Assembly (NCBI GenBank): GCA_018303075.1
Contig: JAGVYW010000042.1
Span: 1 to 51,485 of the forward strand
Origin: Candidatus Woesearchaeota archaeon
GTDB lineage: Archaea > Nanobdellota > Nanobdellia > Woesearchaeales > DSVV01
DNA: 51,485 nucleotides
Direction of reading: 5' to 3'
Positions 21,676 through 46,534 of the stretch are shown here, one piece after another (the stretch's first letter is position 1; each line of letters starts with the position of its first letter). The notes under the pieces are model-generated. The model had not been told where the DNA came from, did not search any database, and saw only the letters and a list, made by a program, of their open reading frames with translations. The position numbers were made by a program, and so were the translations under genes.

Positions 21676-21732
21676 ATATAAATAAATACGAATAATATGA
21701 ATAATTAAAATAACTAAAGAAGTGGTGATTGC

Positions 21733-21876: not shown

Positions 21877-21897
21877 ATTTATTTAGATGTGAAAAAG

Positions 21898-22845: not shown

Positions 22846-22859
22846 TTTGGGGTAACTCA

Positions 22860-24818: not shown

Positions 24819-24833
24819 GAGTGTCAAAGCAAA

Positions 24834-25223: not shown

Positions 25224-25423
25224 TTTTCCAATTGCCCCTTAAATGCATCTTCTTTAGTAAAAGGTACTAAACCTTTGTGTAAACCAAAGCCACTCTTTCT
25301 TATTTTTTCTATTTCTATCTTTATTATCTGATTTTCTATTAATCCTTCTTTCTCTACAATATTTCTTGGAATAGTAACCATTAATGAACCGCCTATCTTC
25401 CTTGTTTTAGTAATTGCTTCCAT
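25220..25423 (-). CDS. AbrB/MazE-type antitoxin
   Basis: TRKIGGSLMVTIPRNIV..EGL. 4-nt overlap with vapC. Confidence 0.88.
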   Translation of the reverse strand: MEAITKTRKIGGSLMVTIPRNIVEKEGLIENQIIKIEIEKIRKSGFGLHKGLVPFTKEDAFKGQLEK

Positions 25424-25519
25424 ATAATATTAAATATAATTAAGTTATATATAAAGTTTTCTCTTGTTTATTTGCAAATATTTTTATACACCTGCCTGTT
25501 TCTTTAATTAGGTGATTAT

Positions 25520-26395
25520 ATGACTCAACAAGAAACTTATGCTGAAAAATTAACACGATTAGCAAAAGAAAGAAAAAGCATCATCTGTGTTGGGTTAGAT
25601 CCTGAGATTGATAAGATTCCTTTGCATGGAGAGATTGAAGATGTTGTGTTTACATTCTACAGAAATATTCTTCAGGCAATGATTGATGAGAATGTAAAGC
25701 CAGCGATTGTCAAGCCAAATTATGCTTTTTATTTTCAGCATGGCTTTGAAGGATTAAAAGCATTGCAAAGGATTGTTGGATTCTGCCATGAGAATGATAT
25801 CCCTATAATATTAGATGCAAAAGTTGGTGACATAAATAAAACAGCACAAGCTTATGCAAAAGGAATATTTGACTGGTTGAAAGTAGACGCTGTTACTGTT
25901 AATGCTTATATGGGCAGAGATGTGCTTGAGCCATTTTTTCCATATTGCAGAGAAGGAAAAGGAGTATATGGATTATTGAAAACATCAAATGAAAGTTCCG
26001 GAGAATTACAAGATTTAGAGTTGAAAGACGGCAAAAAGGTTTATCTGGCAGCTGCTGATATTCTTGCTGGAATTTATTCAAAAAAAGAGGTTACTTCTGG
26101 ATCATTAGGGGGTGTTGTTGGAGCAACTTATCCTATTCAGCTGCAAGAATTGAATGATTATTTTGTTTCTCGGAATGTTGTTGTACCACTACTGATTCCA
26201 GGTGTAGGAAAACAAGGTGGAAGTGCTGCAGATGTTGTTCAAGCACTTGGCGGAAAAAAGAATGAAAATATCTGGATGCATAGAATAAATGTTTCTTCTG
26301 GATTTAGTGAAGCATACATTGCACAGAAAACAACAGATTATGCTGGAGCTGCTGTGAAAGAATTGAAGCGATTGAATAAAGAAGTTGGGCCGTAA
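25520..26395 (+). CDS. pyrF: Orotidine-5'-phosphate decarboxylase
   Basis: CVGLDP, KPNYAFY, LDAKVGDI, KTSN, VVGATYP and LIPGVGKQGG motifs. Confidence 0.95.
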   Translation: MTQQETYAEKLTRLAKERKSIICVGLDPEIDKIPLHGEIEDVVFTFYRNILQAMIDENVKPAIVKPNYAFYFQHGFEGLKALQRIVGFCHENDIPIILDAKVGDINKTAQAYAKGIFDWLKVDAVTVNAYMGRDVLEPFFPYCREGKGVYGLLKTSNESSGELQDLELKDGKKVYLAAADILAGIYSKKEVTSGSLGGVVGATYPIQLQELNDYFVSRNVVVPLLIPGVGKQGGSAADVVQALGGKKNENIWMHRINVSSGFSEAYIAQKTTDYAGAAVKELKRLNKEVGP

Positions 26396-31509: not shown

Positions 31510-34500
31510 TCATCCCCTATTATACACCAAACTATAACTGTTTTTGCTTGGACGTATCTCATAACCTTCTCCTGGTTCAAAGCAGGCAAAGTTGCCTGAC
31601 CATAATCCTGCTGCTGAGCTGTACTGCACATACACATAACTTGCAGAGGTTGTGTTGTACTTGTAGATCCTGTCACCTGAAGCTGGAGATGCTGATGAGA
31701 TGAAAATAGTCGAGAAATTACATTGTTGTATTGCAGAGAAATAACCAAACATATTTATTTCAGCTGATGTTGTGTTTCCTGCTGAATTTGTTGCAGCTGT
31801 GATTGAAACTGTGTAATTGTTTAATGGAACTTCTCCAACTAATGTAATATTATATGCAGCTGAAACTGGCGAAAAGATGTATGATCTTCCATATTCAAAT
31901 AATGCAAAATCACCCAACCAGCCACTGCTTGAAAAAAACTGCACTAACATTGATGTCTTTGAGGTTGTATTGTATGAATAAATAATATCATTTTCTGCAG
32001 GTGATGTTAAATTTGATATGTTAAGATCATTGACTATAACTGGCAAAGAGATGAGATTTAACTGCACTCCTGCTGTTGGGTTTCCAGAAGCTGCTTTGAT
32101 CAATAAATTGAATTTTGAAACAGTTATATCTGTGAGATTATAATTTGTGCCATTTGCTGCTGCAATACGATAAAATCTTTTGTCAACATTTATTGCATTA
32201 TTATCAATGTAATATAACTGTGTTGTTGTTGCATTTGCCGTCGGAAGTGCTGCTGAGGAAAGAACGAGAATATAAGATGCATTGTCTGAAAAAAATAAAT
32301 CATATTGCGAAGCATCTTTAGCTGAATCCCATGAAATGTTTATTGAATTGTTTGCAAGTTTCTTAATTGAGAGATTGCCTGGCATAGATGGCTGTACATT
32401 TGTTGAGTTGAAAATAGTCGTTGTATTTGTTAGAGTTTGATTGATGAAATTTGTTTCATTGCAAGTAATGTTATAATTGTAGGTTGCAGCTGCAGCAAAT
32501 GTCCTTGTGTATTCAAACAATGCTTTTGTCGTGTTGTAGATTAAGCTTGCTGTGCTGTCTGTAAATTTGATGCTGCAATTTGCAGCTGTAACTGTAGTTT
32601 GCGAAGTTGCATTTGTGTAATTTGCAAAAAAGTTTACTTGCTGATTCTCATATGTTATACCAAGGCGATAAGGCACAGAATCATCTGTTGAATCCCAGAT
32701 AACTAATGAAGAATTTTCTCGTGCAGTTATATTAGCTAGACCTATTGTGTAAAAAGTAAGGTTTGCAGCAGTTGCTGAGAGAATTGTACAGCCTGTATTT
32801 GTGCTGTTTCCTGTTTCACAAACAGAACCATTTCTTATAGGTACAGGAGCTGCATAACCTGTGTTGTATAATGAAAAGGTTATATTGCTGTTTAATGTAC
32901 TGTGAAGATGTGAGTTGTTGAAAATAATATTATTTCTGCTGATGTTTACATTTTTATCAAAATCTTGGAATGCAACTGCAACAAAATCATTAAAAATTAT
33001 TTTTCCATTTGATGTGTTTTCGAGGACAAAACTTGATGTATTGTATAATGTTGAGATGAAAAGTGGATATGTGGTGATACCATCAAATGTCTTTATCTCT
33101 GGAGAAGCGTTTAAGCCAGCTGAAATAACTAATGCAAATGGCTGTGAACCTTGTGCAATGTTATATGCTGAGATGTTTATTTTATAGCTTCCTGTCTGTG
33201 TATTGTTTGTATGAATGAGAACTTGCTCAACTGTGTTTCTGTCGTCAGAATAAGTGTTAAAAGGAAATGAAAAATCATTGCCATAAAACTCTGTTCCATT
33301 TGGTGATGTTACAATAATGTTGAGATCATTTACTAATGAAATTGCTGCATTTGATGTGCCTTTGTAATCTGTCCAGACTAAAGTTATCTTGATTGGAGCT
33401 GATGAGTTAATAACTGTAAAATTATAGACTGAAGATTGAGAAGTTGTTAATCCTGTATCATTTTCAATATAGGTAAGATATGCTGGCTCTTGAGGCATTA
33501 ATGTGTTTGTCATGTTTACTCTGCCCCAACCAGTTGTATTGCTTGGAAACCCATAACCTATCTCTTGGGCACCATTAATCAATGCTGCTTTTAATAATGC
33601 TGCTGAAACATTGCTGTAGAATTTGTTGAGCATAAAATCCTGGCGTAATAATACAAGCATACCTGCTGCAGAGGGTGTTGCCATGCTTGTACCAGAACAA
33701 TATGAGTAATAACTATTTGAAGGAAATGCTGAACTACATGATGGAGATGAAGAACTAATCACTGTTGATCTTGTTGAAACAACATTTGTACCAATAACTA
33801 CAACATCTGGCTTTGTTCTGTTGTCTGCTGCAGGACCAAGACTACTTGTCGAGGAGATTAATGCAGGATTGCCTGAGCTTCTGCTACTTTGAAGATTGCC
33901 AATAGAGATTATATTCTTTGCAGTTGCTGGATAATTGACTGTATTTGTACCTGAAAGACCTGAGTTTCCTGCTGCAAAAACAAGTAGAATATCTTTTCTG
34001 TTCCACATAAAATCATCAACTGTTACTGCAAGTGATTCATATACATTTGTATCACCACCATAGCTATTGCTATGCACCCTAACACCATCTAAATACTGAT
34101 CATGAAGAATTGTCTTGTATGTTGAAGTTGTCCCTAAATAAATTGAATGTGTACCATCATCATCTCCTGCTGCATAGAATGAAATGTTTGCTAAGTATGC
34201 CATTCCTTTAAATTGACCAGCTGATAATGTACCATTGCCAGCAGCTGAGCCTGTAACGTGAGTGCCATGACCGTTTTGATCATTTGGCGATGAACATGCT
34301 GCACCGCTCATTTGGCAAACTGAGTCATTTGTCTTAACATTAATAACACGATTATCAAAATCCAACAAAGTATCATTAAATACAGAAAGATTGTCAATGC
34401 CAGTGTCTAAACCAGTATCTAATATACCTATTATCTGATTTTTTCCATTAAGATTTAAGAAATTCCATACAGGAATTACCTCATGGTGTGTTGCTACTAA

Positions 34501-35283
34501 ATCATTTAAGACATGCACTGGTGATGGCGTATCAATTATCTGAACTTCTTCAACTGCAGAAATCTGCTGAATATTTTCTATTGCTGTCTTTACTCTGATA
34601 ACTTCATTATCAGAGTAAATTATTTTTGTACCACTTACTTTTTTTAATTCCTCGGCTATTGCTACTGCGTTTTCATTATCATATAAATAAAGATCGAGTG
34701 TTACTTTGTTATCTTTATCTGGAACAATCGCTGCAATTGTATCTGTGTTTATTTTATACTCTGGCTTGTAATTAATAATTGCTTTAACAAAATCAAATGA
34801 GCGTATTTTGTTTAAGTTTACTGCGGGTATTTTTACAATAAATGAAAACTGCGGGATGTACGAATAGAATTTGACGTCGTATGCCTGCAAAGCTTTTTTC
34901 CATGAATCTCTAACTGGAGCTGCAAATTGAAGAACATAGTATGACTCATTATAAAAGACTTCGCTTTGCTCGTCTTTTATTTGATCTATGTTCTGAAGCT
35001 GCTGTTTTTGCTGTTCTTTTTCTGATTCAGTAATTGTCTGCGACTTAAAATAGATATTTGTATCTGCTTTTTTGTATTCTTCTGGATGATAATCTGCAAG
35101 AGCTGTTTTGACTGAGTTATATTGATGTATTTCTTTTTTATATACAAAAGATAATGAAACAATGATAGTAATGAATAAGAGAACTACAACTATTGCTGCT
35201 AACCCAACTTTTTTCATTATAAAATCATTTACTGCATGAATGATTTTATATAGTTTTGTATTTTTCGAATTCGCTTTGCTCAT
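31510..35283 (-). CDS. S8 subtilase, membrane-anchored, with C-terminal beta-sandwich/FN3-like domains
   Basis: Catalytic triad ILDTG, HGTHVTG, GTSMATP. Oxyanion AAGNSG. LKAALINGA, ITLVWTD and NDLN C-terminal domain. N-terminal TM. Confidence 0.95.
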   Translation of the reverse strand: MSKANSKNTKLYKIIHAVNDFIMKKVGLAAIVVVLLFITIIVSLSFVYKKEIHQYNSVKTALADYHPEEYKKADTNIYFKSQTITESEKEQQKQQLQNIDQIKDEQSEVFYNESYYVLQFAAPVRDSWKKALQAYDVKFYSYIPQFSFIVKIPAVNLNKIRSFDFVKAIINYKPEYKINTDTIAAIVPDKDNKVTLDLYLYDNENAVAIAEELKKVSGTKIIYSDNEVIRVKTAIENIQQISAVEEVQIIDTPSPVHVLNDLVATHHEVIPVWNFLNLNGKNQIIGILDTGLDTGIDNLSVFNDTLLDFDNRVINVKTNDSVCQMSGAACSSPNDQNGHGTHVTGSAAGNGTLSAGQFKGMAYLANISFYAAGDDDGTHSIYLGTTSTYKTILHDQYLDGVRVHSNSYGGDTNVYESLAVTVDDFMWNRKDILLVFAAGNSGLSGTNTVNYPATAKNIISIGNLQSSRSSGNPALISSTSSLGPAADNRTKPDVVVIGTNVVSTRSTVISSSSPSCSSAFPSNSYYSYCSGTSMATPSAAGMLVLLRQDFMLNKFYSNVSAALLKAALINGAQEIGYGFPSNTTGWGRVNMTNTLMPQEPAYLTYIENDTGLTTSQSSVYNFTVINSSAPIKITLVWTDYKGTSNAAISLVNDLNIIVTSPNGTEFYGNDFSFPFNTYSDDRNTVEQVLIHTNNTQTGSYKINISAYNIAQGSQPFALVISAGLNASPEIKTFDGITTYPLFISTLYNTSSFVLENTSNGKIIFNDFVAVAFQDFDKNVNISRNNIIFNNSHLHSTLNSNITFSLYNTGYAAPVPIRNGSVCETGNSTNTGCTILSATAANLTFYTIGLANITARENSSLVIWDSTDDSVPYRLGITYENQQVNFFANYTNATSQTTVTAANCSIKFTDSTASLIYNTTKALFEYTRTFAAAATYNYNITCNETNFINQTLTNTTTIFNSTNVQPSMPGNLSIKKLANNSINISWDSAKDASQYDLFFSDNASYILVLSSAALPTANATTTQLYYIDNNAINVDKRFYRIAAANGTNYNLTDITVSKFNLLIKAASGNPTAGVQLNLISLPVIVNDLNISNLTSPAENDIIYSYNTTSKTSMLVQFFSSSGWLGDFALFEYGRSYIFSPVSAAYNITLVGEVPLNNYTVSITAATNSAGNTTSAEINMFGYFSAIQQCNFSTIFISSASPASGDRIYKYNTTSASYVYVQYSSAAGLWSGNFACFEPGEGYEIRPSKNSYSLVYNRG

Positions 35284-35337: not shown

Positions 35338-35853
35338 ATGGAAGCAAAAGTTGCCATATTAGAACCTTTTTTTCAGAAACCAAGAGAGGCATTTCATATA
35401 AGAGAAGCTGCAAAACTTACAAGCATAAACCATACAACTGTCAGAAAATATCTGCAGGAGATGGTTAAAGAAGGGATATTAACAATCAAAGAGGATAAGT
35501 TATATGATATGTATATGGCAGCTGATTCTCCTGCATTTCGTAATATACATTTATATTATACTCTTGAAATAATACGAAAATCAAAGTTTCTTGCAGAAAT
35601 TGAGAAAAATGATAAAGATGCAGCTGTTGTGCTTTCTGCTTTTACAGAATCTATAGAATTATGCATGATCTATCAGAAAAAGAAAGAATATCCTACTCAG
35701 GAATTAGAGAAAGCTTTTGGAAAGAATATTGCTGTACAATATTATGATATTAAAAAGCTGCAAAATTGTCTGAAAAAGGATGCATTGCTGTTTCAGAAAA
35801 TTATTAATGGCATTGTTATCAATGGTAAGATTACAGTTACTGATTTTTTATGA
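35338..35853 (+). CDS. wHTH protein with degenerate MNT-like domain
   Basis: FHIREAAKLTSINHTTVRKYL HTH. Same overall layout as 931-1584 (ends INGIVING) but the GS/DxD motif is absent. Confidence 0.75.
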   Translation: MEAKVAILEPFFQKPREAFHIREAAKLTSINHTTVRKYLQEMVKEGILTIKEDKLYDMYMAADSPAFRNIHLYYTLEIIRKSKFLAEIEKNDKDAAVVLSAFTESIELCMIYQKKKEYPTQELEKAFGKNIAVQYYDIKKLQNCLKKDALLFQKIINGIVINGKITVTDFL

Positions 35854-35869
35854 ACGGAGTGTAAAAAAT

Positions 35870-37027
35870 ATGAATAAGAAAGCAATTAAATTAACAAGCG
35901 AGGCATTGATTGAAGCAGTATTGATTACAATTGTAATCATAGCATTTGCCTTTTATATCAGCTCATTAAAAGAAGACACACTAATTGAAAAAACAGCAAT
36001 TATCAGAGAATTGTCAATGCTTGCAAATACTGTACAAACAAGCCCACAGGATGTGATAGTGATATATAATAAAAATAATCTGAACAAATATCATTTTTCA
36101 TTTAAGGAGAATTATGTACAGATTAAACAACAGGATTATGCAACTGTGCTGTATCCTTATTACACAGATATGATGCTTTTAATGATGCTGCAAGAGATTG
36201 ATAAAAAAGAGCAAATTGTACTTTCAAGCTTCAAAGATAGTTTTGTTGTTTCTCCTGAAACAATTGTCGGCTTTGCTTCTCAGAGAGGATACAGTTTTAA
36301 TCCTATAAGCGCAGGAGGTAATGGAGTTGTTCAGAACAATGGTCTACAGAAAAATGCACAATCAGCACTTAGCCTTATTAACTGCCCACTTGCAAAGTCA
36401 ACAGCTGCATTGACTACAATTGTACTTGATGCTGGCAAAGGAGATTATGCTGCAATGCCTGATGAGAATGAGCAAGAGATTTTTGTGCTTGATACTGGTG
36501 CAGAGAATAAAGCATTAGGTATCAAGGAACATGAACTTACCATAAAAACAGCGATCATGCTTGAGACAGCACTGCGATTAAAGATTAAGAATGCATTTAT
36601 CAAAAAAACAAGAACACAAAATGAAGATGAAAGTTTTACTTATTATGAAAGACTGCAAAGATTTAGTGCAGATGATAATCTTGTGATTAGCATTCGTATG
36701 TATCAGGCAGAAGAGAATGAAAACAAAATAATTTTGTATATCTTATCTGGAAAAAATGAGCTGCAGAACCAAAAGATTGCATGCCTGCTAATGAATGAAC
36801 TACAAACAAAGGTATCAGGATTAACACATAAAGTTGAGATAAGATACTTGCCTAAAACTGATGATTATTACCCAATATTAGAAAAGAACAGCAAAGAAAA
36901 TGATAATCTAGCTGTTTTATTAGAGCTTGGAAATATTAACAATAAAGACAATGCTTTGTACAGCCAACCAGATGCTACGGTGGATGCAATAGCTGCAGCA
37001 ACTGCTGCATATAATGAGGATAGGTAA
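35870..37027 (+). CDS. Class III signal-peptide (pilin-like) protein with C-terminal Amidase_3-like domain, Zn-ligand His residues lost
   Basis: MNKKA + hydrophobic helix. IVLDAGKG (cf. DAGHG), KEHELT, KKTR, ISIRM (cf. SIHA), AVLLELGNINN. Confidence 0.8.
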   Translation: MNKKAIKLTSEALIEAVLITIVIIAFAFYISSLKEDTLIEKTAIIRELSMLANTVQTSPQDVIVIYNKNNLNKYHFSFKENYVQIKQQDYATVLYPYYTDMMLLMMLQEIDKKEQIVLSSFKDSFVVSPETIVGFASQRGYSFNPISAGGNGVVQNNGLQKNAQSALSLINCPLAKSTAALTTIVLDAGKGDYAAMPDENEQEIFVLDTGAENKALGIKEHELTIKTAIMLETALRLKIKNAFIKKTRTQNEDESFTYYERLQRFSADDNLVISIRMYQAEENENKIILYILSGKNELQNQKIACLLMNELQTKVSGLTHKVEIRYLPKTDDYYPILEKNSKENDNLAVLLELGNINNKDNALYSQPDATVDAIAAATAAYNEDR

Positions 37028-37645
37028 ATGAAAAAAACAAAAATAACTCATTTTTTTTTACAAAAAAATAAAAAAAAAGGTTTTGCCTATTTTCAGATCA
37101 TCTTTGCTTTTTACAGAGCGTTTGTGCTGATGCTTGTTGTATTATCAATCATAATGATAACGAAATTGTTTATCAAAGTAACATTTGATACACAAAAAGC
37201 AGAGATGGAACTGTTTAAAGAACAATTGTTATACTCTAAAGACGGAATTTCGCTGTATGACAGAGAAACGCAGCTGCTTTATCCAGGAGTTATTGATTAT
37301 AACCTCTTAAAGAATAAAGCATTGTTTGAAAGCAAACTTCTGCAAGGATTTTATTTTAAAGATAAACCCCTTGTAGCTGCAAAGCTTGAATTTTCCCTTC
37401 CTACTGAAATTATTGAACTAACTGATCCTACTTATGAAATATTTGAACCAATATTTTATCATGAAGATTATTTTAAAGAGCTAGCTGTGCTTGCAAATAC
37501 AAAGTTGATAGGAGCAGGAGGAGCAAAGATGATCAAACGAGAAACTCCTGTGTTAATTAAGAAAATTATTGTAGAAAATAATCTTGCAGTTGAAAAATAT
37601 ATTCCTGCATATCTGACAATCACGATTGTAAGTTCAAATAGTTGA
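37028..37645 (+). CDS. Class III signal-peptide (pilin-like) protein
   Basis: KKNKKKG/FAYFQIIFAFYRAFVLMLVVLSIIMI. ATG directly follows upstream TAA. Confidence 0.75.
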   Translation: MKKTKITHFFLQKNKKKGFAYFQIIFAFYRAFVLMLVVLSIIMITKLFIKVTFDTQKAEMELFKEQLLYSKDGISLYDRETQLLYPGVIDYNLLKNKALFESKLLQGFYFKDKPLVAAKLEFSLPTEIIELTDPTYEIFEPIFYHEDYFKELAVLANTKLIGAGGAKMIKRETPVLIKKIIVENNLAVEKYIPAYLTITIVSSNS

Positions 37646-37664
37646 TCAGAAAATAATTGATGGT

Positions 37665-38243
37665 ATGAAAAAGATGAATAAAAATAATCAGTTTAAAAAT
37701 AGAATATCGAATAAAAAAGCTGCGACACCATCACAGATATTAATAGACTTTTGGGCAACATTGGTTATTGTAATCATCTTAGCAATATTCTTTTTTATCT
37801 TATATATATCACAAGACAATAGAGAGATTGCAATCAAAGCACAAGCAGCTGAGTTTGAGGTTAATGATGAATTACTCCATCTGCTGCAATATCCTGTTAT
37901 TATTGACGGAAAGACGATGAGCTTTTCTGAAGCAATTGCTGTTTCTGTTCAGAAAGATGATTTTACTGAACTTGAACAAGCATTTGTCAAAGTAAAATCA
38001 TTAATCCAAACAAGATTATATTTTCAATCTAATGGATGTATTGAAATAAATATTGAATATTCTGGTGGAAAAAGAACAATTCCTGCTACTATTAATTGTG
38101 AAGAATACAGCAAATATGAACGTAGTACTGAAAAGATATACAAAAGTAAGGTAGAAATACCATCTTTTGAAGGTGAAAGCATCAGTGTTACTTATTCAGC
38201 AAGTAAAATTACCAATGAAGTTAAACGGAAGTATGAATCATAA
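37665..38243 (+). CDS. Class III signal-peptide (pilin-like) protein
   Basis: SNKKA/ATPSQILIDFWATLVIVIILAIFFFIL. Confidence 0.75.
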   Translation: MKKMNKNNQFKNRISNKKAATPSQILIDFWATLVIVIILAIFFFILYISQDNREIAIKAQAAEFEVNDELLHLLQYPVIIDGKTMSFSEAIAVSVQKDDFTELEQAFVKVKSLIQTRLYFQSNGCIEINIEYSGGKRTIPATINCEEYSKYERSTEKIYKSKVEIPSFEGESISVTYSASKITNEVKRKYES

Positions 38244-38299
38244 GTAGAATAATGAGTCATAAGTAAAATAATATATATGAATAATAGGTAGGAATAAAC

Positions 38300-40480
38300 A
38301 TGGAAATAGAAATCAGAGAAACAACAAAAAGAAGAAGAATAAACAAGAAATCACAGATATTCATGATGTTATTAGTCTTTGTTACTCTAACAACTATAAT
38401 TTCTATCTATTTTGTACTTTCTGAAAAAAGAGCAAATGTTAAAAATGATTTTGGAAAAGAAAGCATGAATCTTATAAGTGGATATCAAGAAGAACAGAAA
38501 TTACTGCATACAATCCAACTGCAAGCTAAATTTGCATATTATCAATCAGTATATGACCTTGGATTGTCTGGAGGAGTTGGGATTGAAAATAATTGCGGTA
38601 AATACAGAGGATTTATCAATTATTATAATGATCCTGAACTTCAGCAATGTTTACCTTTGACTCCAGAAAAAGAATTGGCTGCGCTGATGAATAAAGAGAT
38701 GAGATTTGTTGAAGAAGGAATTGATGGAAACAAAGTAAGTGTATTTTATAATACTGAACTGAAAGATAATTATATAATTGGAAAGGCAAATGGATCAATT
38801 GCATATACATATGATAGTACAAATCAAGTATTAAATCTTGGTTCAATTGAAGTCAAACAATTATCTCCAGATGAATATGCACAGTTATACCATCCTAATA
38901 CAATTGGAAGTCCAAGCGGCAGTGGTGTTAAACAATTTCCAACTTGCGATAAAACAGAAGATGTAATCATTGAGCTTTCTAATGAAAAAGAAAAGCCAGA
39001 AAACCAAGTGAATTATGGAAGAATATGGATTCCAGCTGAAGCTTTGTGCGGAGGAGAATTTCCATTGCTAATAATGCTGCACGGACATTCACGACCAGAA
39101 ATTGCTTATATTGGAGAAAAGGCAGGATACCGTGTTGATAAAGATGTAAGGATATTAATAAACGAAAGGAAGATTTATCCTGTAATCCTTGCTGCACCTC
39201 TTGGAATAAAAACAACTAAAGGCACTCCTTGGCCAGCTGGACAATTAGATATTGACAAATATATTGCAAGAATACAAGAAGAAGTAAAAAAACATAATCC
39301 TAAAATTGCAATAAGCAAAGTTGGAATGACAGGACATAGTGCTGCAAATTGTTATACAAATACGGCATTACAATATTATCCCGCAAAATATAATTTTTAT
39401 TTTGTTGGTTCTGCAGATGGAACATGCGGTAATTTTAAGAATGCAGTTGGAACTGATAATTATGCACAGGAGATCACACAAAAGATTGGAAAAAAGGATA
39501 CAATATATGTTTTAATGCATCGCAATAGCGAGAGAGGAGACCAATCATCAGAAGCATTTATGACAGAAAACAGCGCTGATGATTCAGCTGATAGTATTGC
39601 AAAAGATAATTATGTTTCTGTTGTAAAGAAAAATAATAGGGAATATTATAGATATCTGCTAGACCCACAGAAATATAGACATGATACTGTACCAAAAATT
39701 ATGATAATTGAGATTTTGCAGAGGTTTTTTACATTAGAAAAGGTTGGTAGCATTGCTCCTTATGCTGCTGTTTATCAGGATATACAATTAGGAAGTTTGG
39801 GATGTAAGAGAACACAATATAATATAAATAGTGAATCAATTGGTACACCTAATTGCGGTGCTTTGAAGAATGCAGTTTTGTTTGTAAGGAATACAGATTA
39901 TTATAAATCTGATCACGACACTAAAAAAGCATATGCAACTGTTGAATTAGTTAATATTATTGAGGATATTGGCTGTGTGCTGACTGCAAAAAGTAACTAT
40001 GGGCCGCAAGGAAAAGTTGCTGTTGGACAAACAAGCTATGAATATGGAGGAAAATTATATGCTCATTCGTCGCATCAGAGCGGAAGGGATGCCGATATTG
40101 GATTTTTCTTCAGAGATAAAAAACAGCAATTGGTTAGTATGCAGACTGTGATGGTTAATACAAAGACAAATGCTGTTGATCCACGTTTTGACTTAGAAGC
40201 TAATTGGCTGTTCGTAAGAGAATTTTTTAAACATGATTTAGCAGAGAGTATTTTTATTTATGGTGCATTAGAAGACGCACTTATTGCTTATGCAGAACAA
40301 CATAATGAAGATAAATCATTGATTGAAAAAGCTAAACAAAAAATGGTTGGCGGGTATGAAGAATTAGGTCATGATCATAGAGATCATTATCATATCAGGA
40401 TTAAATGCCCACACGGAGATAATTTATGTAAAACTAAATATAAGAAATGTGATAATTATTATATTGCTCAGGCGAAATGA
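38300..40480 (+). CDS. Pilin-like protein with alpha/beta-hydrolase-like domain and C-terminal MepA-type murein endopeptidase
   Basis: INKKS/QIFMMLLVFVTL. FPLLIMLHG and TGHSAA. YATVELV, HSSHQSGRDAD (H-x6-D) and HRDHYHIRIKCP (HxH). Confidence 0.85.
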   Translation: MEIEIRETTKRRRINKKSQIFMMLLVFVTLTTIISIYFVLSEKRANVKNDFGKESMNLISGYQEEQKLLHTIQLQAKFAYYQSVYDLGLSGGVGIENNCGKYRGFINYYNDPELQQCLPLTPEKELAALMNKEMRFVEEGIDGNKVSVFYNTELKDNYIIGKANGSIAYTYDSTNQVLNLGSIEVKQLSPDEYAQLYHPNTIGSPSGSGVKQFPTCDKTEDVIIELSNEKEKPENQVNYGRIWIPAEALCGGEFPLLIMLHGHSRPEIAYIGEKAGYRVDKDVRILINERKIYPVILAAPLGIKTTKGTPWPAGQLDIDKYIARIQEEVKKHNPKIAISKVGMTGHSAANCYTNTALQYYPAKYNFYFVGSADGTCGNFKNAVGTDNYAQEITQKIGKKDTIYVLMHRNSERGDQSSEAFMTENSADDSADSIAKDNYVSVVKKNNREYYRYLLDPQKYRHDTVPKIMIIEILQRFFTLEKVGSIAPYAAVYQDIQLGSLGCKRTQYNINSESIGTPNCGALKNAVLFVRNTDYYKSDHDTKKAYATVELVNIIEDIGCVLTAKSNYGPQGKVAVGQTSYEYGGKLYAHSSHQSGRDADIGFFFRDKKQQLVSMQTVMVNTKTNAVDPRFDLEANWLFVREFFKHDLAESIFIYGALEDALIAYAEQHNEDKSLIEKAKQKMVGGYEELGHDHRDHYHIRIKCPHGDNLCKTKYKKCDNYYIAQAK

Positions 40481-41586
40481 AAATGAAAAAAAACAACCAG
40501 AAAAAAAGAATAAGCAGGCATATCACACTATTGTCAATTATACTTCTCTTCCCTATGACTCTGTTTTTATCTCATATTGTTTCTGCTGAACCACAACTGT
40601 TAATTAGCATTGATAATGATAATCATCTTGAAGATTTCCAAGTAATTGCAAACAATGATTATTATGGAGAAAAATATTATCCTTTGCTTGCTGAAGAATA
40701 TGGTGAGGAGATTTTAGTAGAGCCTAAGAAATTTCATTATAGAGCAAGATTAAACAATGTAGAATTTTCTCAACTAAATAACAGATTTGCATTATCATTA
40801 AATCCGAAAACAACAACCATAAAAATATTTGATGATAATCTTGTTGTGAGTAATAATGATAATAATAAGAATGCAATTTTCATCAAACAAATCTCTTTCT
40901 GCAACAACAATAATATTTGTGAACCTTGCGAAGGTGTTGATTGTAATCTAATGGAATCTTCTTTGACGTGCAGTGATTGTAAAACAGGGGAGAAAGATTT
41001 AGTTTGTGATTTAATATATGATGGAATATGTGATCCGGATTGTGAAGATAAGGATAAAGACTGCAGCAGCTGCAATGAGAATGAAAATAATTGCTATGAA
41101 TATAACGAAGAAACACAATGCTCTGAAGAATATAATGGAAAAACATGTTTTTTTGGAAAAAGCTGCGCTGAAGGAGATGGTGTAACAATTGGAGATACTT
41201 TGTGCTGTCCAAACAGTTATTGTATAACTTCTTTTTTTTCAATGAATGAAAAAAAAGAGATTGAGAAAACAGAAGAAAAACAAAATGAAGAAAAAGAGAT
41301 ACAATTTACAGATCAAACTGCAATAAATAAAAAACAATCATTTATTGTTTATTTTGTGCTTATTGGAGTGTTAATTGCTGCAGTATTATCATTATCCATC
41401 TATTTTATCAGAAAGCTGTACAAATCAAAAATGCTAGTGATTGAGATTCAACGATTGAAAAATATAAACAGATATAGTTATGCAGAGATTAAAGTATATC
41501 TAGAGAAGCAAGGATATAAAAAAGGAGATATTGATTTAGCAATACAACAACATTATCTGTATGATAAGAATGTTAAGAATCACTAA
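40477..41586 (+). CDS. Exported Cys-rich protein with C-terminal TM anchor and cytoplasmic tail
   Basis: Signal peptide, CNNNNICEP...DGICDPDC..DKDC, TM FIVYFVLIGVLIAAVLSLSIYFI. ATGA overlap with upstream gene. Confidence 0.8.
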   Translation: MKMKKNNQKKRISRHITLLSIILLFPMTLFLSHIVSAEPQLLISIDNDNHLEDFQVIANNDYYGEKYYPLLAEEYGEEILVEPKKFHYRARLNNVEFSQLNNRFALSLNPKTTTIKIFDDNLVVSNNDNNKNAIFIKQISFCNNNNICEPCEGVDCNLMESSLTCSDCKTGEKDLVCDLIYDGICDPDCEDKDKDCSSCNENENNCYEYNEETQCSEEYNGKTCFFGKSCAEGDGVTIGDTLCCPNSYCITSFFSMNEKKEIEKTEEKQNEEKEIQFTDQTAINKKQSFIVYFVLIGVLIAAVLSLSIYFIRKLYKSKMLVIEIQRLKNINRYSYAEIKVYLEKQGYKKGDIDLAIQQHYLYDKNVKNH

Positions 41587-41625
41587 TCGTGCTTTTTAAC
41601 ATTACTTTGAAAAAGGACCGAAAAC

Positions 41626-44600
41626 ATGAAATATAGCTTTGAGACAAATAGCTTCAAGACAAAAACAAGAAAAATACTGCAATTTTTGTTAGCTACTGCT
41701 TTCCTGCTATTATGTACTGCTTTTGCCATAGCAGATGATTTTAATTTTGCTGTAATTACAGATACAAATATTGGTATAGGAAGTATTGTATTAGCTAAAC
41801 AAAGTGATGCAGTTGTCAGTTCTATTATTCATTCTCCACAAAAGATTGATTTTGTCATTCACTTAGGCAATATGGTTGCTGGAAGCAGCAGTACAACAGC
41901 AGAAGATGCTGAGAAGATGTGGCAGGAATATAATCAAAAAATTGTTTCACAACTTTCTGATAAACAAATAGGAATATTGCTTATCGCTAATCAACAAGAC
42001 AAAGCAAATGTAGCATCAGAAAATAATTATATCAATATGTTTAAGTCAACAAAACATGATTTTGCATCCTCAGCAGCTGTAAAAGAGAATTACGCATTTG
42101 TGTATAAGGATAATTTATTTATTGTCTTACAATATGATAAGAATATTGACAAAAGCTGGCTGAAAGAGCAACTAGAAAAGAATTATCAAACAGTTGATCA
42201 TGTGTTTGTATTCTCTGTAAATGAATTTGCTGCAATTGCAAAAGAAAAAACAGCTGCTATTAGCTGCAATAACTGCAATGAGCTATTTGCTGCACTTGAC
42301 AGCTATAGCAATAAATATGGCAATAAAATAACCTTGTTTACATCATCATCTCAAGTATATTTTAAAGGAGATTACAAAGGATATGATGTTGTCTCTGTCG
42401 GAGCAATTGATGAACCACACACAATAATTGGTGTCAATGAACGGCAGAAAGCTGTGTATAGTGTTGTTGCTGTCAATGATAAGAATAAAATTATCTATGG
42501 TGTTGAAGAACCATTTGACCATTGGTTTTATGAATGCAGAAATCTGCCATTAATACAGCCAAAAGGATATGATAAATTTAATGGGATTATCACTGGATGC
42601 CAGCAGATTGAAGGAGAAAGTGAGGATGGAAAAGGAATCAATAAAAAATATGGTTTGACACAGTCACCATGCATTATTCCACCACAATTTGAGGGATATG
42701 AAGAATATACCAGAAAAAGAGGATTGAACATAAACAGCTTTAATGAAAAACATCCTGAATATGATGCAATTATATTAGAGGCATCACAGAAATTTAATGT
42801 ACCTTTTGAATTGATCAAAGCAATCATAATGGAAGAATCTGGAGGAAATCCATTTCCATCAAAAGAATCTCTTGGTGGAAAAATATGCAATAAGAATGGA
42901 TGCTTATGCAATGAACAAGGATATTGTGGATTGATGGGAACTGGATTAGATTATGTTTGCTTGACTCAAGCAGAATGTAATAAAGAAGCATTTATCAAAG
43001 GAAGTGTTAAAGACCAGATTTTTGCAGGAACAGCAATCCTTCAAAGAATAATAAAGAAAAAAAGCTGCAAACTTGATAATAAAAATCTGCTTGAAGATAT
43101 TAATAACCCGCAATATATTATGCATTTATTTGGATGCTATGGAAAAGGTATTGCTGATAATAAAGAATATTGTGAAAGAGAAAAAAAGCCGTGCGGTTAT
43201 CCTGTTTTCCTTCGCAGAGCAATGCAAAAAAACGGTAAACCTTTGGAAAAGATTACTCCAATAGATATTGCCACTGTAACAACAACTGCAAATGCTATTG
43301 TGCATAGTTACATAAAAGAGATCAAATTAGACCTATGTAAAAAAGGAGTTATCAATGATCAAATAACACATCCTATTAATCAGAATCTTATTGCAGTACA
43401 AGGCCAGTCCGCATTAGCTAAGGTAGGAGTAGCAAAAGGAGTTTCAACTGTGTATTATCTAACACCAAACTTTAGAATTCCTATTGATAATTCACTTAAT
43501 GATTATAAAACAATACGAGAGGCAGCAACTCAGCTAGTAACTGAAATCAATGACTGCAGAAGCCATGGTAATAATGTTGAGAATTGTTTTAGTATAAGCA
43601 TCAATAATCAAAAATATAAAACACTTGGAATTACAGCTGACAATCTACTATGTAAAGAGAATAAACTTGACAAATTCATCTATGATTCAATCGAGAATAT
43701 GAAAACATGCTCTAAATTAATTAATAAAAAGTGCTCTATAAATATTCCTTTACAATATCCTGGGGATGCAAAACTTGATGAAAATGAAATTGCATTTGTT
43801 TTTTCATCAGCAGATGAAAAAACAACTCTTGTTTCTGTGTTTGTCAATAATATTCTATATACTACTGATAAAATAAGCGGAAGTTTGGCTTTGTTTGAAG
43901 ACTTAATTGCACAACCTGAGTTTAAAGATGTAAAAAATGCAACAATATTATTGCAGTATGATAAATATCAATTTAAGAGAAGTATATTAGCATTTACTTT
44001 TGAAAATAAAAATACTAATCTTGATGAGAATAAAGAAGAGAATAAAGATTATAATTATCAGTTTGCTCTTCGAGACAAAATAATCTCATTTGTTTTTGAT
44101 CAAGATAATAAATTGAGTTTCTTTAGTGATAAACTGACACAACCATATATTGCTTTTGCTGAAGCACAACAGCAAGAAATTGAAGAGCTACAAAATCTAA
44201 AGAAAGGATTTAAGTTATGCTATTTGAGCAGAAATACAATGTATGCAAATAGTATGTTTGATGCTACTGCTGAAGATACTGCTTATTATGAAAAGAATCT
44301 ACGCTATCCTACAAGACTAAGAAATCTTGTGTACAGATTTGCACTGCTGTTTGATATTTCACAAGCAATTCCACATACAAGTATTGTTGTAAGTGATCTG
44401 CAAAAAGCAGAAAAAACTGTGCTTGTGAAGTTTAATAAACCTAGTACTCCTGTCAAATATTATACATTGTTTTTTTCTGCTGATAAAAATAGTTTAGAGC
44501 TGCCTACTAATGAATTGATGAAAAAAGATAGTGTTATGAAGATTATTCTTGATCCAAGCACAGCAAAAACAGCAAGCGTTGATGATTATACTTTGCCTGG

Positions 44601-45207
44601 AAATGAAATCATTGCTGGCAGATTGTATTATAATTTTATAGAGAATATGTATTTCATTGCAATTACTGTTGATGATGAATCCAAACAATATTATTTTGCT
44701 GTTGCTGGAATGAGTGTTAATAATAAAGAACCAAATAATGTTGATGCTGATCAAAAACTTGAGATTGTTGAAGGAAGTTCTGCTGATGACTTAGCACCAA
44801 TGCCTCCTGAAGTTGTTGTAATTGAAGGAAATATTGCTGCAGATGAATATGAAGAACAAGAGGAAGAACAGGAGGAGATTAACAGTAATATTATAATTGC
44901 TGCTCCAATGCAAGGAAAGATTACAGCTGCTTTGGATAGTGTTATAGATAATAGCAATCCTAACTATCTGCTTACTGATTTAGATGGATATTTTGCTGTG
45001 ATATATGAAAATAAAGCTGATGCTTCATTGAAGCTTACTAAAGAAAATTGTAATACTGAAAATAACTGCCAATTAGTCTCTGCTGTGCTGCCTGAAAATA
45101 AAGATAGATTTGAGATAGAATTTAATGGATTAAATGATGATACTAAATATATGGTTGTTGTGTATGCTGTTGATACTTCTGGAAATTATTTAGAGATTGC
45201 TAAATAA
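41626..45207 (+). CDS. Secreted multidomain protein: degenerate metallophosphoesterase + SLT lytic transglycosylase + FN3-like C-terminus
   Basis: Sec signal. FAVITDTN, HLGNMV and ANQQD (degenerate). YDAIILEASQKFNVPFELIKAIIMEESGGNP, GLMG and QIFAGTAIL. YYFAVAG and YMVVVYAVDTSGN. Confidence 0.8.
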   Translation: MKYSFETNSFKTKTRKILQFLLATAFLLLCTAFAIADDFNFAVITDTNIGIGSIVLAKQSDAVVSSIIHSPQKIDFVIHLGNMVAGSSSTTAEDAEKMWQEYNQKIVSQLSDKQIGILLIANQQDKANVASENNYINMFKSTKHDFASSAAVKENYAFVYKDNLFIVLQYDKNIDKSWLKEQLEKNYQTVDHVFVFSVNEFAAIAKEKTAAISCNNCNELFAALDSYSNKYGNKITLFTSSSQVYFKGDYKGYDVVSVGAIDEPHTIIGVNERQKAVYSVVAVNDKNKIIYGVEEPFDHWFYECRNLPLIQPKGYDKFNGIITGCQQIEGESEDGKGINKKYGLTQSPCIIPPQFEGYEEYTRKRGLNINSFNEKHPEYDAIILEASQKFNVPFELIKAIIMEESGGNPFPSKESLGGKICNKNGCLCNEQGYCGLMGTGLDYVCLTQAECNKEAFIKGSVKDQIFAGTAILQRIIKKKSCKLDNKNLLEDINNPQYIMHLFGCYGKGIADNKEYCEREKKPCGYPVFLRRAMQKNGKPLEKITPIDIATVTTTANAIVHSYIKEIKLDLCKKGVINDQITHPINQNLIAVQGQSALAKVGVAKGVSTVYYLTPNFRIPIDNSLNDYKTIREAATQLVTEINDCRSHGNNVENCFSISINNQKYKTLGITADNLLCKENKLDKFIYDSIENMKTCSKLINKKCSINIPLQYPGDAKLDENEIAFVFSSADEKTTLVSVFVNNILYTTDKISGSLALFEDLIAQPEFKDVKNATILLQYDKYQFKRSILAFTFENKNTNLDENKEENKDYNYQFALRDKIISFVFDQDNKLSFFSDKLTQPYIAFAEAQQQEIEELQNLKKGFKLCYLSRNTMYANSMFDATAEDTAYYEKNLRYPTRLRNLVYRFALLFDISQAIPHTSIVVSDLQKAEKTVLVKFNKPSTPVKYYTLFFSADKNSLELPTNELMKKDSVMKIILDPSTAKTASVDDYTLPGNEIIAGRLYYNFIENMYFIAITVDDESKQYYFAVAGMSVNNKEPNNVDADQKLEIVEGSSADDLAPMPPEVVVIEGNIAADEYEEQEEEQEEINSNIIIAAPMQGKITAALDSVIDNSNPNYLLTDLDGYFAVIYENKADASLKLTKENCNTENNCQLVSAVLPENKDRFEIEFNGLNDDTKYMVVVYAVDTSGNYLEIAK

Positions 45208-45266
45208 GAATTGATAAAGCAACTAGAATCTGAATATTACAATAAACATGTGTTTTGAATAACATA

Positions 45267-45320
45267 ATAAAAAACTCCCTTCGGTCGTTTTTTATCAGTA
45301 AAATGAGCGAAGCGTGATTT
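45267..45320. repeat. Two adjacent hairpins of the TC-NN-TTC-N'N'-TC family in opposite orientation
   Basis: ATAAAAAAC-TCCCTTCGGTC-GTTTTTTAT (45267-45295) and AAAT-GAGCGAAGCGT(g)-ATTT (45301-45320), between convergent genes. Confidence 0.85.
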
Positions 45321-45334
45321 CTTATATTCTTATC

Positions 45335-46384
45335 TTATAGATTAGTAATTGAAGGCATATTAGGGATATTGTTTGGCATAGATTGTAATTCTTTTTCGAG
45401 CTTTTTCATCTCATCCTCAGGATTAATATCTGTGAAAACAAAATTGCTGATAAATTCCAGACGATCAAACATCATGTTCTTTGAGGTTTTGCCTACCACT
45501 TTAATCATCTCACCCAGCAGATCATTCTTTACTTTTGCAAATGATTCAGGAGATTCTTTGAATAAAAGAATCTCCTCTTCCTCTTTTTTGAGAAGCTTTT
45601 TTACCTGATTTTTAAAAAAAACAACCCTGATATTATCTGTACCATCATCAAGGAAAAGATTAACAACATAGGAATACCCGTGCTGTACTGTACCATGTTC
45701 ATTACAGACAAAACCAGATTCTTTTGCTGAAACTTTTTTGCCACAATTAGGACATATCTCAAAAAACTTTATATCAAACACCTGTACAATAGTACCAACC
45801 AACTCAATATTTGTTTCATTTTCTTTTAGATCATGTATCCTTTTCCTTGTAAAATCATACTTCTTTTGCTGCTGCTGCGAAAGCTGAGCAACTGCCACAT
45901 TTGGTGGATTGATAAAAAGCTTGCTTTTTTCATTGAGATGCAGTTCTTTAAAGCCATTGTTCTCTTTAATATAACCTGAAAGCAATTTGATTACATCATT
46001 TTCCTTAAGAACATCAAAGTCTTTTGTAAGAGCATGCCAAAGAACTACTCTTATCTGACCTGTTTCATCTGCTGCAAGAAAACTTGCAACTTTGCCTTGT
46101 ATCTCTCCTCTTTGGAATTCCCTTAAAGTATATTTCTTTGCTACACGAGCATTTAATTCAATGTTACGCATACCTGCAACAAGATCTTTTATCTTGATTG
46201 CGCCAGATGCTTGAACTAGACGTATACCTAAGTCATTTGCAACAATATGTGCAGCACCTTCTTCAGAAATTAAACCAGCCAATTGTGTCATCTTTTGCTT
46301 GATTTTTTCACGAATCTCATCTTCTGAAAGCTGTGATTTTTCCTTAATCTTTTCAATAATTGTATGTAAAGGCATCGATGTCAT
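45335..46384 (-). CDS. Replication protein A-like ssDNA-binding protein (OB folds + Zn ribbon)
   Basis: GLISEEGAAHIVA N-terminus, DETGQIRVVLW, CPNCGKKV..CNEHG, LDDGTDNIRVVFF. Confidence 0.9.
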   Translation of the reverse strand: MTSMPLHTIIEKIKEKSQLSEDEIREKIKQKMTQLAGLISEEGAAHIVANDLGIRLVQASGAIKIKDLVAGMRNIELNARVAKKYTLREFQRGEIQGKVASFLAADETGQIRVVLWHALTKDFDVLKENDVIKLLSGYIKENNGFKELHLNEKSKLFINPPNVAVAQLSQQQQKKYDFTRKRIHDLKENETNIELVGTIVQVFDIKFFEICPNCGKKVSAKESGFVCNEHGTVQHGYSYVVNLFLDDGTDNIRVVFFKNQVKKLLKKEEEEILLFKESPESFAKVKNDLLGEMIKVVGKTSKNMMFDRLEFISNFVFTDINPEDEMKKLEKELQSMPNNIPNMPSITNL

Positions 46385-46452
46385 AGTAAAGCACTTTTTC
46401 AAATTTATTTCAATTGTATAAAAGTAGAATTCTTGGAATGTTTATATAGTTT

Positions 46453-46534
46453 ATTAATTTTGAGCAAGAGCCATAATTTGGTAAGACAAATTAATTTTGA
46501 GCAAGAGCCATAATTTGGTAAGACAAATTAATTT
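46453..46534. repeat. Exact 37-bp tandem duplication plus 8-bp partial third copy
   Basis: (ATTAATTTTGAGCAAGAGCCATAATTTGGTAAGACAA)x2 + ATTAATTT. Confidence 0.95.

Follow-up and report, generated by a model that had tools for sequence, protein, structure and literature searches.

Several described systems come close to the gene cluster considered here. In bacteria, modular type IV pilins join a small module bearing a class III signal to a grafted functional module, as in PilB (vWA) and PilC (lectin) of S. sanguinis; the survey of these proteins covers bacterial IPR012902 pilins in many architectures, one of which is listed with a peptidase module (PMC8179133). In Sulfolobales, the bindosome comprises non-pilin proteins with class III signals and pilin-like processing, which have been proposed to functionalise the cell-surface base of a type IV filament (PMC13705601, citing Zolghadr 2007 and 2011). 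Large SLT proteins of Woesearchaeota and Pacearchaeota are also already in print, together with the idea of a bacterial host or prey (PMC8204110, which cites Rinke 2013 and Castelle 2015; PMC9723730). The DNA analysed in this work, referred to as the window, is a stretch of 51,485 nucleotides from a tiny groundwater archaeon of Candidatus Woesearchaeota (contig JAGVYW010000042.1), which carries at positions 35870-45207 a cluster of six genes, G1-G6. The results rather favour a reading in which proteins of this cluster serve as class-III-signal carriers that present murein hydrolases on the cell surface or a pilus, where these would act on bacterial walls.

All six genes lie on the + strand, with gaps of 0, 19, 56, -4 and 39 bases between them. 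An earlier sequence-only reading of this DNA had described six tightly packed, co-oriented genes at 35870-45207, which is borne out, and a seventh co-oriented gene, G0, is now added upstream. The positions it had given for three enzyme domains fall inside the intervals 36407-37024, 39815-40444 and 42733-43185 listed below, and their assignment to murein-hydrolase-type domains (an Amidase_3 fold, M74 and GH23) is upheld by Pfam, by sequence matches in the Protein Data Bank (PDB) and by predicted folds. In the list, ORF stands for open reading frame and AF2 for AlphaFold2.

35870-37027, + strand: G1, 385 residues, starting at an internal ATG of the ORF 35780-37027; N-terminus NKKA, then IKLTSEALIEAVLI...
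35870-36274, + strand: N-module of G1, residues 1-135, modelled by AF2 as long helices at the N-terminus with a beta-sheet after them
36407-37024, + strand: Amidase_3 fold of G1, residues 180-385, with a degenerate metal site
37028-37645, + strand: G2, 205 residues, N-terminus KKKG, then FAYFQ..., without a known domain; a core gene of the order
37665-38243, + strand: G3, 192 residues, N-terminus NKKA, then ATPSQ..., without a known domain
38300-40480, + strand: G4, 726 residues, N-terminus NKKS, then QIFMM..., a three-part carrier
38300-38869, + strand: N-module of G4, residues 1-190, the conserved carrier module
39002-39739, + strand: middle domain of G4, residues ~235-480, predicted alpha/beta-hydrolase (esterase-like) fold
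39815-40444, + strand: Peptidase_M74 domain of G4, residues ~506-715, a MepA-type LAS metallopeptidase
40477-41586, + strand: G5, 369 residues, Sec signal VSA/E, Cys-rich ectodomain and C-terminal membrane helix
41626-45207, + strand: G6, 1193 residues, secreted, Sec signal AIA/D
42733-43185, + strand: SLT/GH23 domain of G6, residues ~370-520, with Glu404 in 'IIMEESGGNP'
35338-35853, + strand: G0, a 171-residue winged-helix (helix-turn-helix, HTH) protein ending 16 bases 5' of G1

The class III signal consists of a short, basic leader with [KR][GAS] at its end and, directly after it, a hydrophobic helix of about 20 residues (the FlaFind motif). The N-termini of G1-G4 read NKKA, KKKG, NKKA and NKKSQ, and each is followed by a hydrophobic helix. 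The genome background consists of 1072 non-overlapping ORFs of at least 100 residues; a hydrophobic window near the N-terminus is present in 230 of them, and in 39 of the 230 it is immediately preceded by [KR][KR][GAS], so that four adjacent motif-bearing genes are unlikely to have arisen by chance. The [KR][GAS] pair stands directly before the helix in 35 of 37 orthologues of G1, 32 of 35 of G2, 31 of 36 of G3 and 33 of 35 of G4, some of the misses being start-codon miscalls of crude ORF calling, and among the 149 best-matching G4 relatives from the database that have a detectable helix, 138 show it. The start of four genes with KK[A/G/S] and a hydrophobic helix, as noticed in the sequence-only reading, is thus seen in the sequence and conserved across orthologues.

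The genes found around the quartet G1-G4 also point in the direction of pilins. In several relatives (e.g. loci L017, L018, L019, L021 and L023, the first three belonging to the relative genomes G019, G012 and G002) three to ten small genes of class-III type lie immediately upstream of G1, and they include pilin-like ORFs of ~95-130 residues, e.g. 'KKAQGLSLNMVA...'. The counterparts in the genome of the window are located on contig C41 (1-9025, locus L060, minus strand), which holds at least eight ORFs of class-III-signal type; two of them are tandem major-pilin candidates of 99 and 96 residues (5245-5544 and 5620-5910), with at least six more such ORFs within 9 kb. The C41-type pilin cluster is contiguous with the quartet in the complete relative G040, and the two are apart in the genus of the window.

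The predicted structures add to this picture for G1. Its AF2 model has helices at residues 2-34 and 38-57 and strands within 62-128, with a predicted local distance difference test score (pLDDT) mostly of 84-96 by block. The nearest structures to residues 1-140 in the Atlas model are small archaeal proteins of 131-162 residues, with template modelling (TM) scores of 0.61-0.71; of the Atlas clusters near this module, one is 99% DUF7266 and another has 30% Class_IIIsignal members, which is a lead only. In the model of the G4 N-module, a membrane helix (16-46) is followed by a long helix (53-89) after Gly52 and then by a small helix-sheet unit with two conserved cysteines, Gly52 being invariant and the Cys pair conserved in the alignment. 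When the complete models of G1 and G4 were used in fold searches, the enzyme domains took up the match lists, and the N-modules were barely compared with solved pilins. The complex predicted from the mature G1 N-module, G2, G3 and the G4 N-module scored 0.39 against 0.26 for the control, which is evidence neither way. Taken together, conservation of the motif, the gene neighbourhood and the predicted fold of the G1 N-module make the pilin-like nature of the carriers likely.

The machinery needed for a filament was searched for across the genome, as the sequence-only reading had proposed, and prepilin peptidase, ATPase and platform genes are all present. Peptidase_A24, the prepilin peptidase family, is matched on contig C16 with 43-45 bits. 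Two adjacent T2SSF platform genes of 272 and 352 residues are found on contig C36; the pair lies directly downstream of a gene for a 2529-residue signal-peptide protein, the whole stretch being 3032-12643 (locus L025), and has no ATPase beside it. Such a two-gene platform corresponds to 'system 1' of PMC13705601, which is described there for methanogens and some DPANN. The T2SSE ATPase is encoded at C29:56547-60389 (L024:548-4387) by a 1280-residue ORF with an intein (Intein_splicing 93.7 bits, LAGLIDADG_3 50.4 bits), and it is the sole type II/IV secretion-family ATPase found in the genome. Because the intein interrupts the gene, the ATPase fell under the cut-off of 24.9 bits in the whole-genome scan (22.8 bits), and the ORF scored whole reached 39.3 bits. 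The next ORF after it, of 737 residues, has no known family.

The protein G4 combines the conserved carrier module with enzyme domains. Its M74 domain scores 59.6 bits in Pfam (cut-off 25, residues 513-713), and phmmer aligns residues 511-708 with E. coli MepA (1tzp), placing 'HSSHQSGRDAD' on 'HASHQTGLDVD' and 'HRDHYH' on 'HRAHMH'. The LAS motifs H-x(3-6)-D and H-x-H are therefore intact in G4 (H592, D597/D599 and H696-Y-H698). The AlphaFold model has a mean pLDDT of 65.4 overall, with higher values in the M74 domain, and the five best Foldseek matches are MepA chains (1tzp/1u10; E 5.9e-7 to 3.1e-6, TM by target 0.59). Against the NCBIfam MepA equivalog NF006947 the domain reaches 64.8 bits, with a cut-off of 272; judged by these scores, it is a distant member of the family and not a MepA equivalog. 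The middle domain of G4 has no Pfam match. Its Foldseek matches are S9 peptidases, cutinases and PETases (E 1e-4 to 1e-3, in a part of the model where pLDDT is 45-88), 'GHSAA' is present where the nucleophile elbow would sit, and a homologue of this domain occurs in the G6 orthologue of locus L019 (BLASTP, 30% over 255 residues).

The cargo carried by the G4 module was also surveyed in related genomes. When 28 orthologues of G4 were scanned singly, 23 had at least one murein-hydrolase family at E<=0.001, 22 of them above the Pfam cut-off; the VanY match of the orthologue in L052 has 24.5 bits against a cut-off of 25. The other eight of the 36 orthologues were scanned within the group tally only. 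Over all 36, the cargo comprises M23 (8), SLT (7), NlpC/P60 (7), M74 (5), M15_4 (3) and Amidase_2 (2), with VanY, M15, Lysozyme_like, PGA_cap and fn3 occurring once each; the PGA_cap (CapA-like) domain is in the orthologue of L017. Among the best 107 of 150 listed database relatives, the families found were M23 (22), SLT (13), VanY (11), M15 (10), NlpC/P60 (9), Amidase_2 (3), M15_4 (3), M74 (3), Lysozyme_like (3), Phage_lysozyme2 (2) and SLT_2 (2), and Glucosaminidase, CHAP, M15_3, M15_2 and SLT_4 once each. Non-murein cargo in the same 107 was limited to fn3 (8), GDSL (1) and single weak matches to Biotin_lipoyl_2, DUF4945 and Ig_RIMBP2. These counts are not converted into an overall cargo percentage, because families overlap on one protein and many of the database proteins are fragments. 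The pattern first noticed in the window, in which proteins starting with KK[GAS] and a helix carry murein-hydrolase domains, holds across the order, and the cargo of G4 in Woesearchaeales appears to be almost always a murein hydrolase, although of differing family. The attachment of seven or more unrelated murein-cutting folds to one conserved carrier is the strongest argument for murein as the true substrate.

The conservation of the quartet, which the sequence-only reading had suggested surveying across Woesearchaeota, was examined at two levels. In BLASTP comparisons with eight fetched relatives, the order G1-G2-G3-G4(-G5-G6)-RPA was the same, RPA being a replication gene. Additionally, 27 more loci were fetched around G2 matches and their ORFs were labelled by jackhmmer, which gave 36 loci with the window included. 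Every one of the 36 loci has G2 and the G4 N-module, a G3-family ORF stands between them in 34, and G1 lies upstream in 34, the other two loci beginning at G2; the order of the quartet is thus kept. RPA comes next within the fetched stretch in 24 of the 36. The G2 family was found in 36 of 41 relatives (24/24 genomes of the family, 11/16 from other families of the order). In a phylum-wide sample of 151 high-quality genomes, the G4 N-module was found in 124, with a single copy in nearly every case, and its profile matches 2075 cluster representatives at E<=0.001 (1450 at 1e-10) among 1.84 billion proteins; in all of the best 150 of these 2075 the module is N-terminal. In 23 matching genomes from other orders of the class, the G4 frame has 150-292 residues, whereas in the order of the window it reaches up to 1860. 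These short frames indicate that the quartet is older than the enzyme cargo, and the fusion to murein hydrolases seems to be an elaboration within Woesearchaeales.

The amidase-like domain of G1 is of a different character. Pfam assigns Amidase_3 to residues 184-379 (30.8 bits, cut-off 27), and Foldseek returns CwlD (7rag_B, E 2.5e-6), CwlV and LytH (E 2.5e-6 to 5.4e-6); the VIA-align comparison gave Z 18.3 with a root mean square deviation of 3.0 Å over 173 residues. At the level of sequence, phmmer of G1 against PDB sequences yielded only chance RPB9 matches, and a homologue search with the amidase region returned only G1 itself and the same-genus orthologue. The zinc ligands of Amidase_3 are taken by us to be His-Glu-His, with a catalytic Glu, located by the family motifs DxGHGG, SxHxN and xLxExGF. 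In G1, Lys190 ('LDAGKGD') and Arg276 ('ISIRMY') stand at the positions of the two His among the three zinc ligands, while Glu352 in 'LLELGN' is kept; this assignment derives from alignment columns and the family motifs, not from a superposition of side chains. Among 33 orthologues of G1, only that of L048 keeps 'IDPGHGEE', 'ILSIHIG' and 'LELGN', and an Amidase_3-like domain is detected in 6 of the 33 at E<=0.001, with M15_4 in one. The domain of G1 is probably a degenerate amidase that acts as a binding or structural module rather than as a cutter. The sequence-only reading had seen in the cluster a full toolkit covering all three bond types of murein; this is not supported in that form, since the loss of two of three zinc ligands makes amide cleavage by G1 doubtful.

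The same reading had spoken of a pilin-fused set of enzymes, which holds for G1 and G4 but not for the SLT protein G6. Both G5 and G6 lack the KK[GAS] start and carry ordinary Sec-type signals (VSA/E and AIA/D). In G5, the C-terminal membrane helix begins at residue 289 and is followed by a short cytoplasmic tail; its orthologues are found only in the closest loci (8 jackhmmer matches), and G6 is likewise confined to the closest relatives. The protein G6 has a degenerate N-terminal domain resembling metallophosphoesterases, then a GH23 lytic transglycosylase, and lastly a long C-terminal part that ends fn3-like. Its SLT domain stays under the Pfam cut-off (14.9 bits, cut-off 21.3, residues 383-410), and phmmer against PDB sequences gave no match. 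A profile of seven orthologous segments (G6 and six others) matched the lytic transglycosylases MltC (9vi7_A, E 2.4e-7) and EmtA (E ~6e-4). All seven segments share the Glu-Ser pair (Glu404-Ser405 in G6), which falls on the IESS motif of MltC in the alignment, and the G-L-M-Q-like and Y-x-x-G motifs are conserved in part (GLMG, CYGKG). At E<=0.01, the SLT domain was called in the G6 orthologues with 54.5, 33.7, 27.5 and 25.1 bits, all over the cut-off, and with 18.4 bits, under it; the sixth orthologue has fn3 only. The orthologue in L018 has Metallophos and NAGPA (phosphodiester glycosidase) domains, and that in L019 has a GDSL/SGNH esterase beside SLT, for which de-O-acetylation of murein before transglycosylase action can be offered as a guess. 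A strain variant was seen at the start of G6 (41618-41654) in contigs of two groundwater runs (X3 and X4); it has a 15-base deletion, in frame by length, and 3 substitutions, at a low depth of 3.3.

On the basis of these data, the following mechanism can be proposed. A PibD-type A24 peptidase would trim the leaders of G1-G4, and their helices would then either anchor the proteins in the membrane or let them be incorporated at the base or tip of a filament (a type IV filament or a pseudopilus) assembled by the ATPase and split platform protein of the genome. The N-module of G4 would present a cargo that varies between lineages, in this organism the esterase-like alpha/beta-hydrolase and the MepA-type D,D-endopeptidase. 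The dead amidase of G1 may grip murein at the contact with the bacterial wall, and G6, exported by Sec, would cut the glycan strand by its GH23 lytic transglycosylase. Bacteria would be the target, whether for attachment, breaching, killing or scavenging. We infer leader cleavage, incorporation into a filament, enzyme activity and the bacterial partner, as well as display on a pilus, which is derived from the signal motif and the gene neighbourhood.

Several observations weigh against this interpretation. A basic stretch followed by a helix is typical also of a plain signal anchor, and no pilin or class-III-signal model in Pfam (e.g. PF04021, PF07790) matches G1-G4 at E<=1, nor does NCBIfam hold a pilin family that matches them. 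Pilin models, being short and divergent, often miss true pilins; therefore, this null result lowers the claim of membership in a pilin family, and not the claim that the proteins work alike. The pilin-like fold is backed for the N-module of G1 alone, by a predicted model and by Atlas neighbours below the naming bar, and in the model of G4, of moderate overall pLDDT, the helix is broken at Gly52. The genes for the ATPase, platform and peptidase lie on other contigs, and none was found beside the cluster in 37 kb of the complete relative G040, which agrees with the remark in PMC13705601 that type IV filament genes are scattered in DPANN. On the side of the enzymes, the G1 amidase-like domain is without two zinc ligands, five of the 28 singly scanned G4 orthologues (L035, L040, L048, L050 and L055) have no hydrolase, and the G4 frames of at most 292 residues in other orders suggest that the ancestral role of the quartet was not murein attack. 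Finally, one Mur_ligase_M match is present in the genome (contig C38, a 417-residue ORF). Since Haloferax and Methanocaldococcus also have matches to this family, it is no specific sign of murein.

Part of these observations would fit another explanation, unlikely on balance and still a serious competitor, in which G1-G4 are plain membrane-anchored ectoenzymes. The KK[GAS] start and helix would then be an uncleaved signal anchor, the four proteins would have type II topology with no filament, and the hydrolases would supply amino sugars and amino acids by breaking down dead bacteria or loose pieces of murein. The absence of matching pilin family models, the non-adjacent pilus machinery and the ordinary Sec signals of G5 and G6 all agree with it, and the small genome suggests reliance on scavenged building blocks, as general knowledge of DPANN and PMC9723730 have it. 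The positive-inside rule alone, however, does not demand the small residue after the basic pair, which is kept in four families and in 138 of 149 relatives. Two further points against it are that, in several relatives, small pilin-like genes directly precede the quartet and that the N-module of G1 is predicted as helix and sheet, like small archaeal class-III proteins.

Another reading gives the proteins a role on the archaeon's own envelope, the quartet forming a core surface or division apparatus whose hydrolases remodel an own wall polymer or open it for a pilus. The near-universal, mostly single-copy quartet, syntenic with the replication gene RPA, has the look of housekeeping; the G4 frames of other orders, too short for a large hydrolase domain, and the Mur ligase-like gene also agree with such a role. 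We nevertheless regard it as improbable, because the Transpeptidase and FtsW/RodA families gave 0 matches in a genome 95% complete, and the Pfam descriptions of SLT, Amidase_2, M74, M23, NlpC/P60 and VanY tie these families specifically to bacterial murein. Archaea are not known to make murein. It is for the lack of matches to transpeptidase and FtsW/RodA that the substrate is taken as a foreign bacterial wall.

Secreted antibacterial weapons are a further explanation, which we consider very improbable: the hydrolase domains would be released against competing bacteria at a distance, and the N-modules would be mere devices for export or anchoring. Bacteria-killing peptidoglycan hydrolases of archaea are documented (PMC12352652), and the product of the S8 subtilase gene directly upstream of the cluster could perform the release. 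A carrier with three partners in fixed order speaks for a built structure and not for simple export, however, and no release site is evident.

The last alternative, an assembly chimera or contamination in which bacterial murein-hydrolase DNA was mis-joined to an archaeal contig, could appeal only to the bacterial type of the hydrolase domains and is refuted as far as sequence data allow, given the same gene order in 36 loci from many assemblies, independent contigs spanning G4-G5 and G6-RPA, even guanine-plus-cytosine (GC) content and hydrolase domains that share reading frames with Woesearchaeota-specific N-modules. The window is contig C12 of a genome of 1.24 Mb in total, 95% complete and 0.4% contaminated, with a GC content uniform over the window at 0.29-0.37. 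Its flanks are archaeal housekeeping genes (RPA with Rep_fac-A_C and DUF2240, RNase J, a pyrimidine-synthesis cluster and TrmB-like regulators), and a same-genus relative has an identical gene order with proteins 63-84% identical. Contigs from a run of another study match the window at 35811-38249, 38303-39614, 39753-41152 and 41736-46482 with 0-1 differences, of which the third bridges G4-G5 and the fourth leads from G6 into the RPA gene. A query with a 6-row G2 alignment returned 5 loci from a named genome collection; 5 of 5 are titled Candidatus Woesearchaeota, and one is 84% identical in G2. The contig is thus Woesearchaeal and the cluster is a real, vertically inherited operon of a DPANN archaeon, in line with the DPANN-like origin supposed from the sequence alone.

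The remaining genes of the cluster and its surroundings can be described briefly. G2, G3 and G5 have no Pfam or NCBIfam family. The Atlas neighbours of G2 are hypothetical proteins of Woesearchaeota/Nanobdellota, and its likeness to DUF7287/DUF7288 (scores 0.83 and 0.78, below the tool's bar of 0.9) is a lead only. G0 has weak Pfam HTH matches (Mnd1/IclR/SelB-wing); its orthologue in L015 is 71% identical, no match was found in the other fetched loci, and among the 36 loci G0 is at this position only in the same-genus relative. It is possible that G0 acts as a local regulator. Divergent from the cluster and upstream of it lie the genes of two very large surface proteins: the S8 subtilase (31510-35283, - strand; 1257 residues, N-terminal membrane helix), kept at the same place in the same-genus relative with 80% identity, and a signal-peptide protein without a Pfam family (26427-31370, - strand; 1647 residues). 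The pyrimidine cluster (16916-26395) consists of carA, carB, pyrD, a 658-residue ORF and pyrF; the 658-residue ORF (22842-24818, + strand) has an Amidohydro_1 (dihydroorotase-like) and a phosphoribosyltransferase domain and looks like a PyrC-PyrE-type fusion. A 442-residue Fic/DOC-domain protein with a DeoR-like HTH at its C-terminus is encoded at 11132-12460 (- strand).

Woesearchaeales are among the most widespread DPANN lineages, and we know of no cultured host pair for them. Published genome surveys of Woesearchaeota inferred bacterial contact from single large transglycosylase genes. The present results add a defined, conserved apparatus, encoded across the class by four pilin-like genes whose order is fixed, and give a marker gene family (2075 cluster representatives) in public data. 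They also offer a testable mechanism, consisting of processing by a prepilin peptidase, display on the surface or a filament, and cleavage of the wall, and with it a handle for predicting the bacteria targeted by a lineage. A bolder proposal, which we put forward tentatively and hold to be rather less probable than not, is that in Woesearchaeales the complex at the tip or base of a type IV filament is armed with murein hydrolases that can be exchanged, and that the cells use it to breach walls, docking onto bacteria and opening them. If this is true, the swapping of cargo on the one conserved carrier module (M74, M23, M15/VanY, NlpC/P60, SLT, Amidase_2) would track the wall chemistry of each lineage's bacterial host, and the carrier gene would become a genomic read-out of host range.

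In comparison with the known systems, the enzymes of the cluster have clear counterparts. E. coli MepA (1tzp, 1u10) belongs to the same Pfam family as the M74 domain of G4, its LAS metal motifs align with those of G4, and it is the best structural match; the domain of G4, in turn, is archaeal, only 18% identical and fused behind a carrier and an esterase-like domain. The archaeal peptidoglycan hydrolases that kill bacteria are, like the cluster as interpreted here, murein hydrolases of archaea aimed at bacteria, and their description mentions DPANN/Woesearchaeota in passing, the terms 'pilin', 'class III', 'M74' and 'operon' being absent from its main text (PMC12352652). The GH23 genes of Lake A Woesearchaeota resemble G6 in encoding large secreted SLT/GH23 proteins and led to the same inference of attack on, or attachment to, bacterial walls (PMC9723730). 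Where that work and PMC8204110 mention murein, transglycosylases or peptidoglycan, they deal with lytic transglycosylases only, and 'pili', 'amidase' and 'endopeptidase' are absent from their main texts where searched; what goes beyond them is the quartet of pilin-like proteins with its carrier module, on which six or more hydrolase families are swapped. To the sequence-only reading, the pilin-fused enzyme set looked undescribed. This has to be divided: large Woesearchaeal SLT proteins are in print (PMC8204110, PMC9723730), whereas full-text searches turned up neither the conserved quartet nor its carrier module nor an exchange of murein-hydrolase cargo on it, and no paper was found there that joins pilin-like proteins of Woesearchaeota/DPANN to murein hydrolases, supplements and subscription journals lying outside this scope.

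With regard to the display system, the tip of the bacterial type IVa pilus has four conserved minor pilins and a large non-pilin adhesin, PilY1/PilC (PMC8179133). Similarly, the quartet stands in fixed order beside the large secreted non-pilin G6 and, in relatives, downstream of major pilin genes; no relation to the tip proteins is seen in sequence or tested fold, and a beta-propeller is missing. A close parallel to the G1-G4 reading within archaea is the bindosome, whose cargo consists of solute-binding proteins linked to ABC transporters, whereas that of the quartet consists of wall-cutting enzymes; in the main text of PMC13705601, 'peptidoglycan', 'hydrolase' and 'enzym' do not occur, and the function of the filament genes of DPANN is called unclear. 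The modular pilins of bacteria share with G4 the design of a small class-III-signal module with a grafted functional one. The carrier of G4 differs from them in being archaeal (the word 'archaea' is absent from the main text of PMC8179133) and without an InterPro or Pfam signature, in being one of four genes in fixed order, and in a cargo that is nearly always a murein hydrolase. Summarizing, on the reading preferred here two known ideas, that of modular pilins, of which the surveys so far are bacterial, and that of the archaeal bindosome, would be extended to enzymes that degrade walls across domains.

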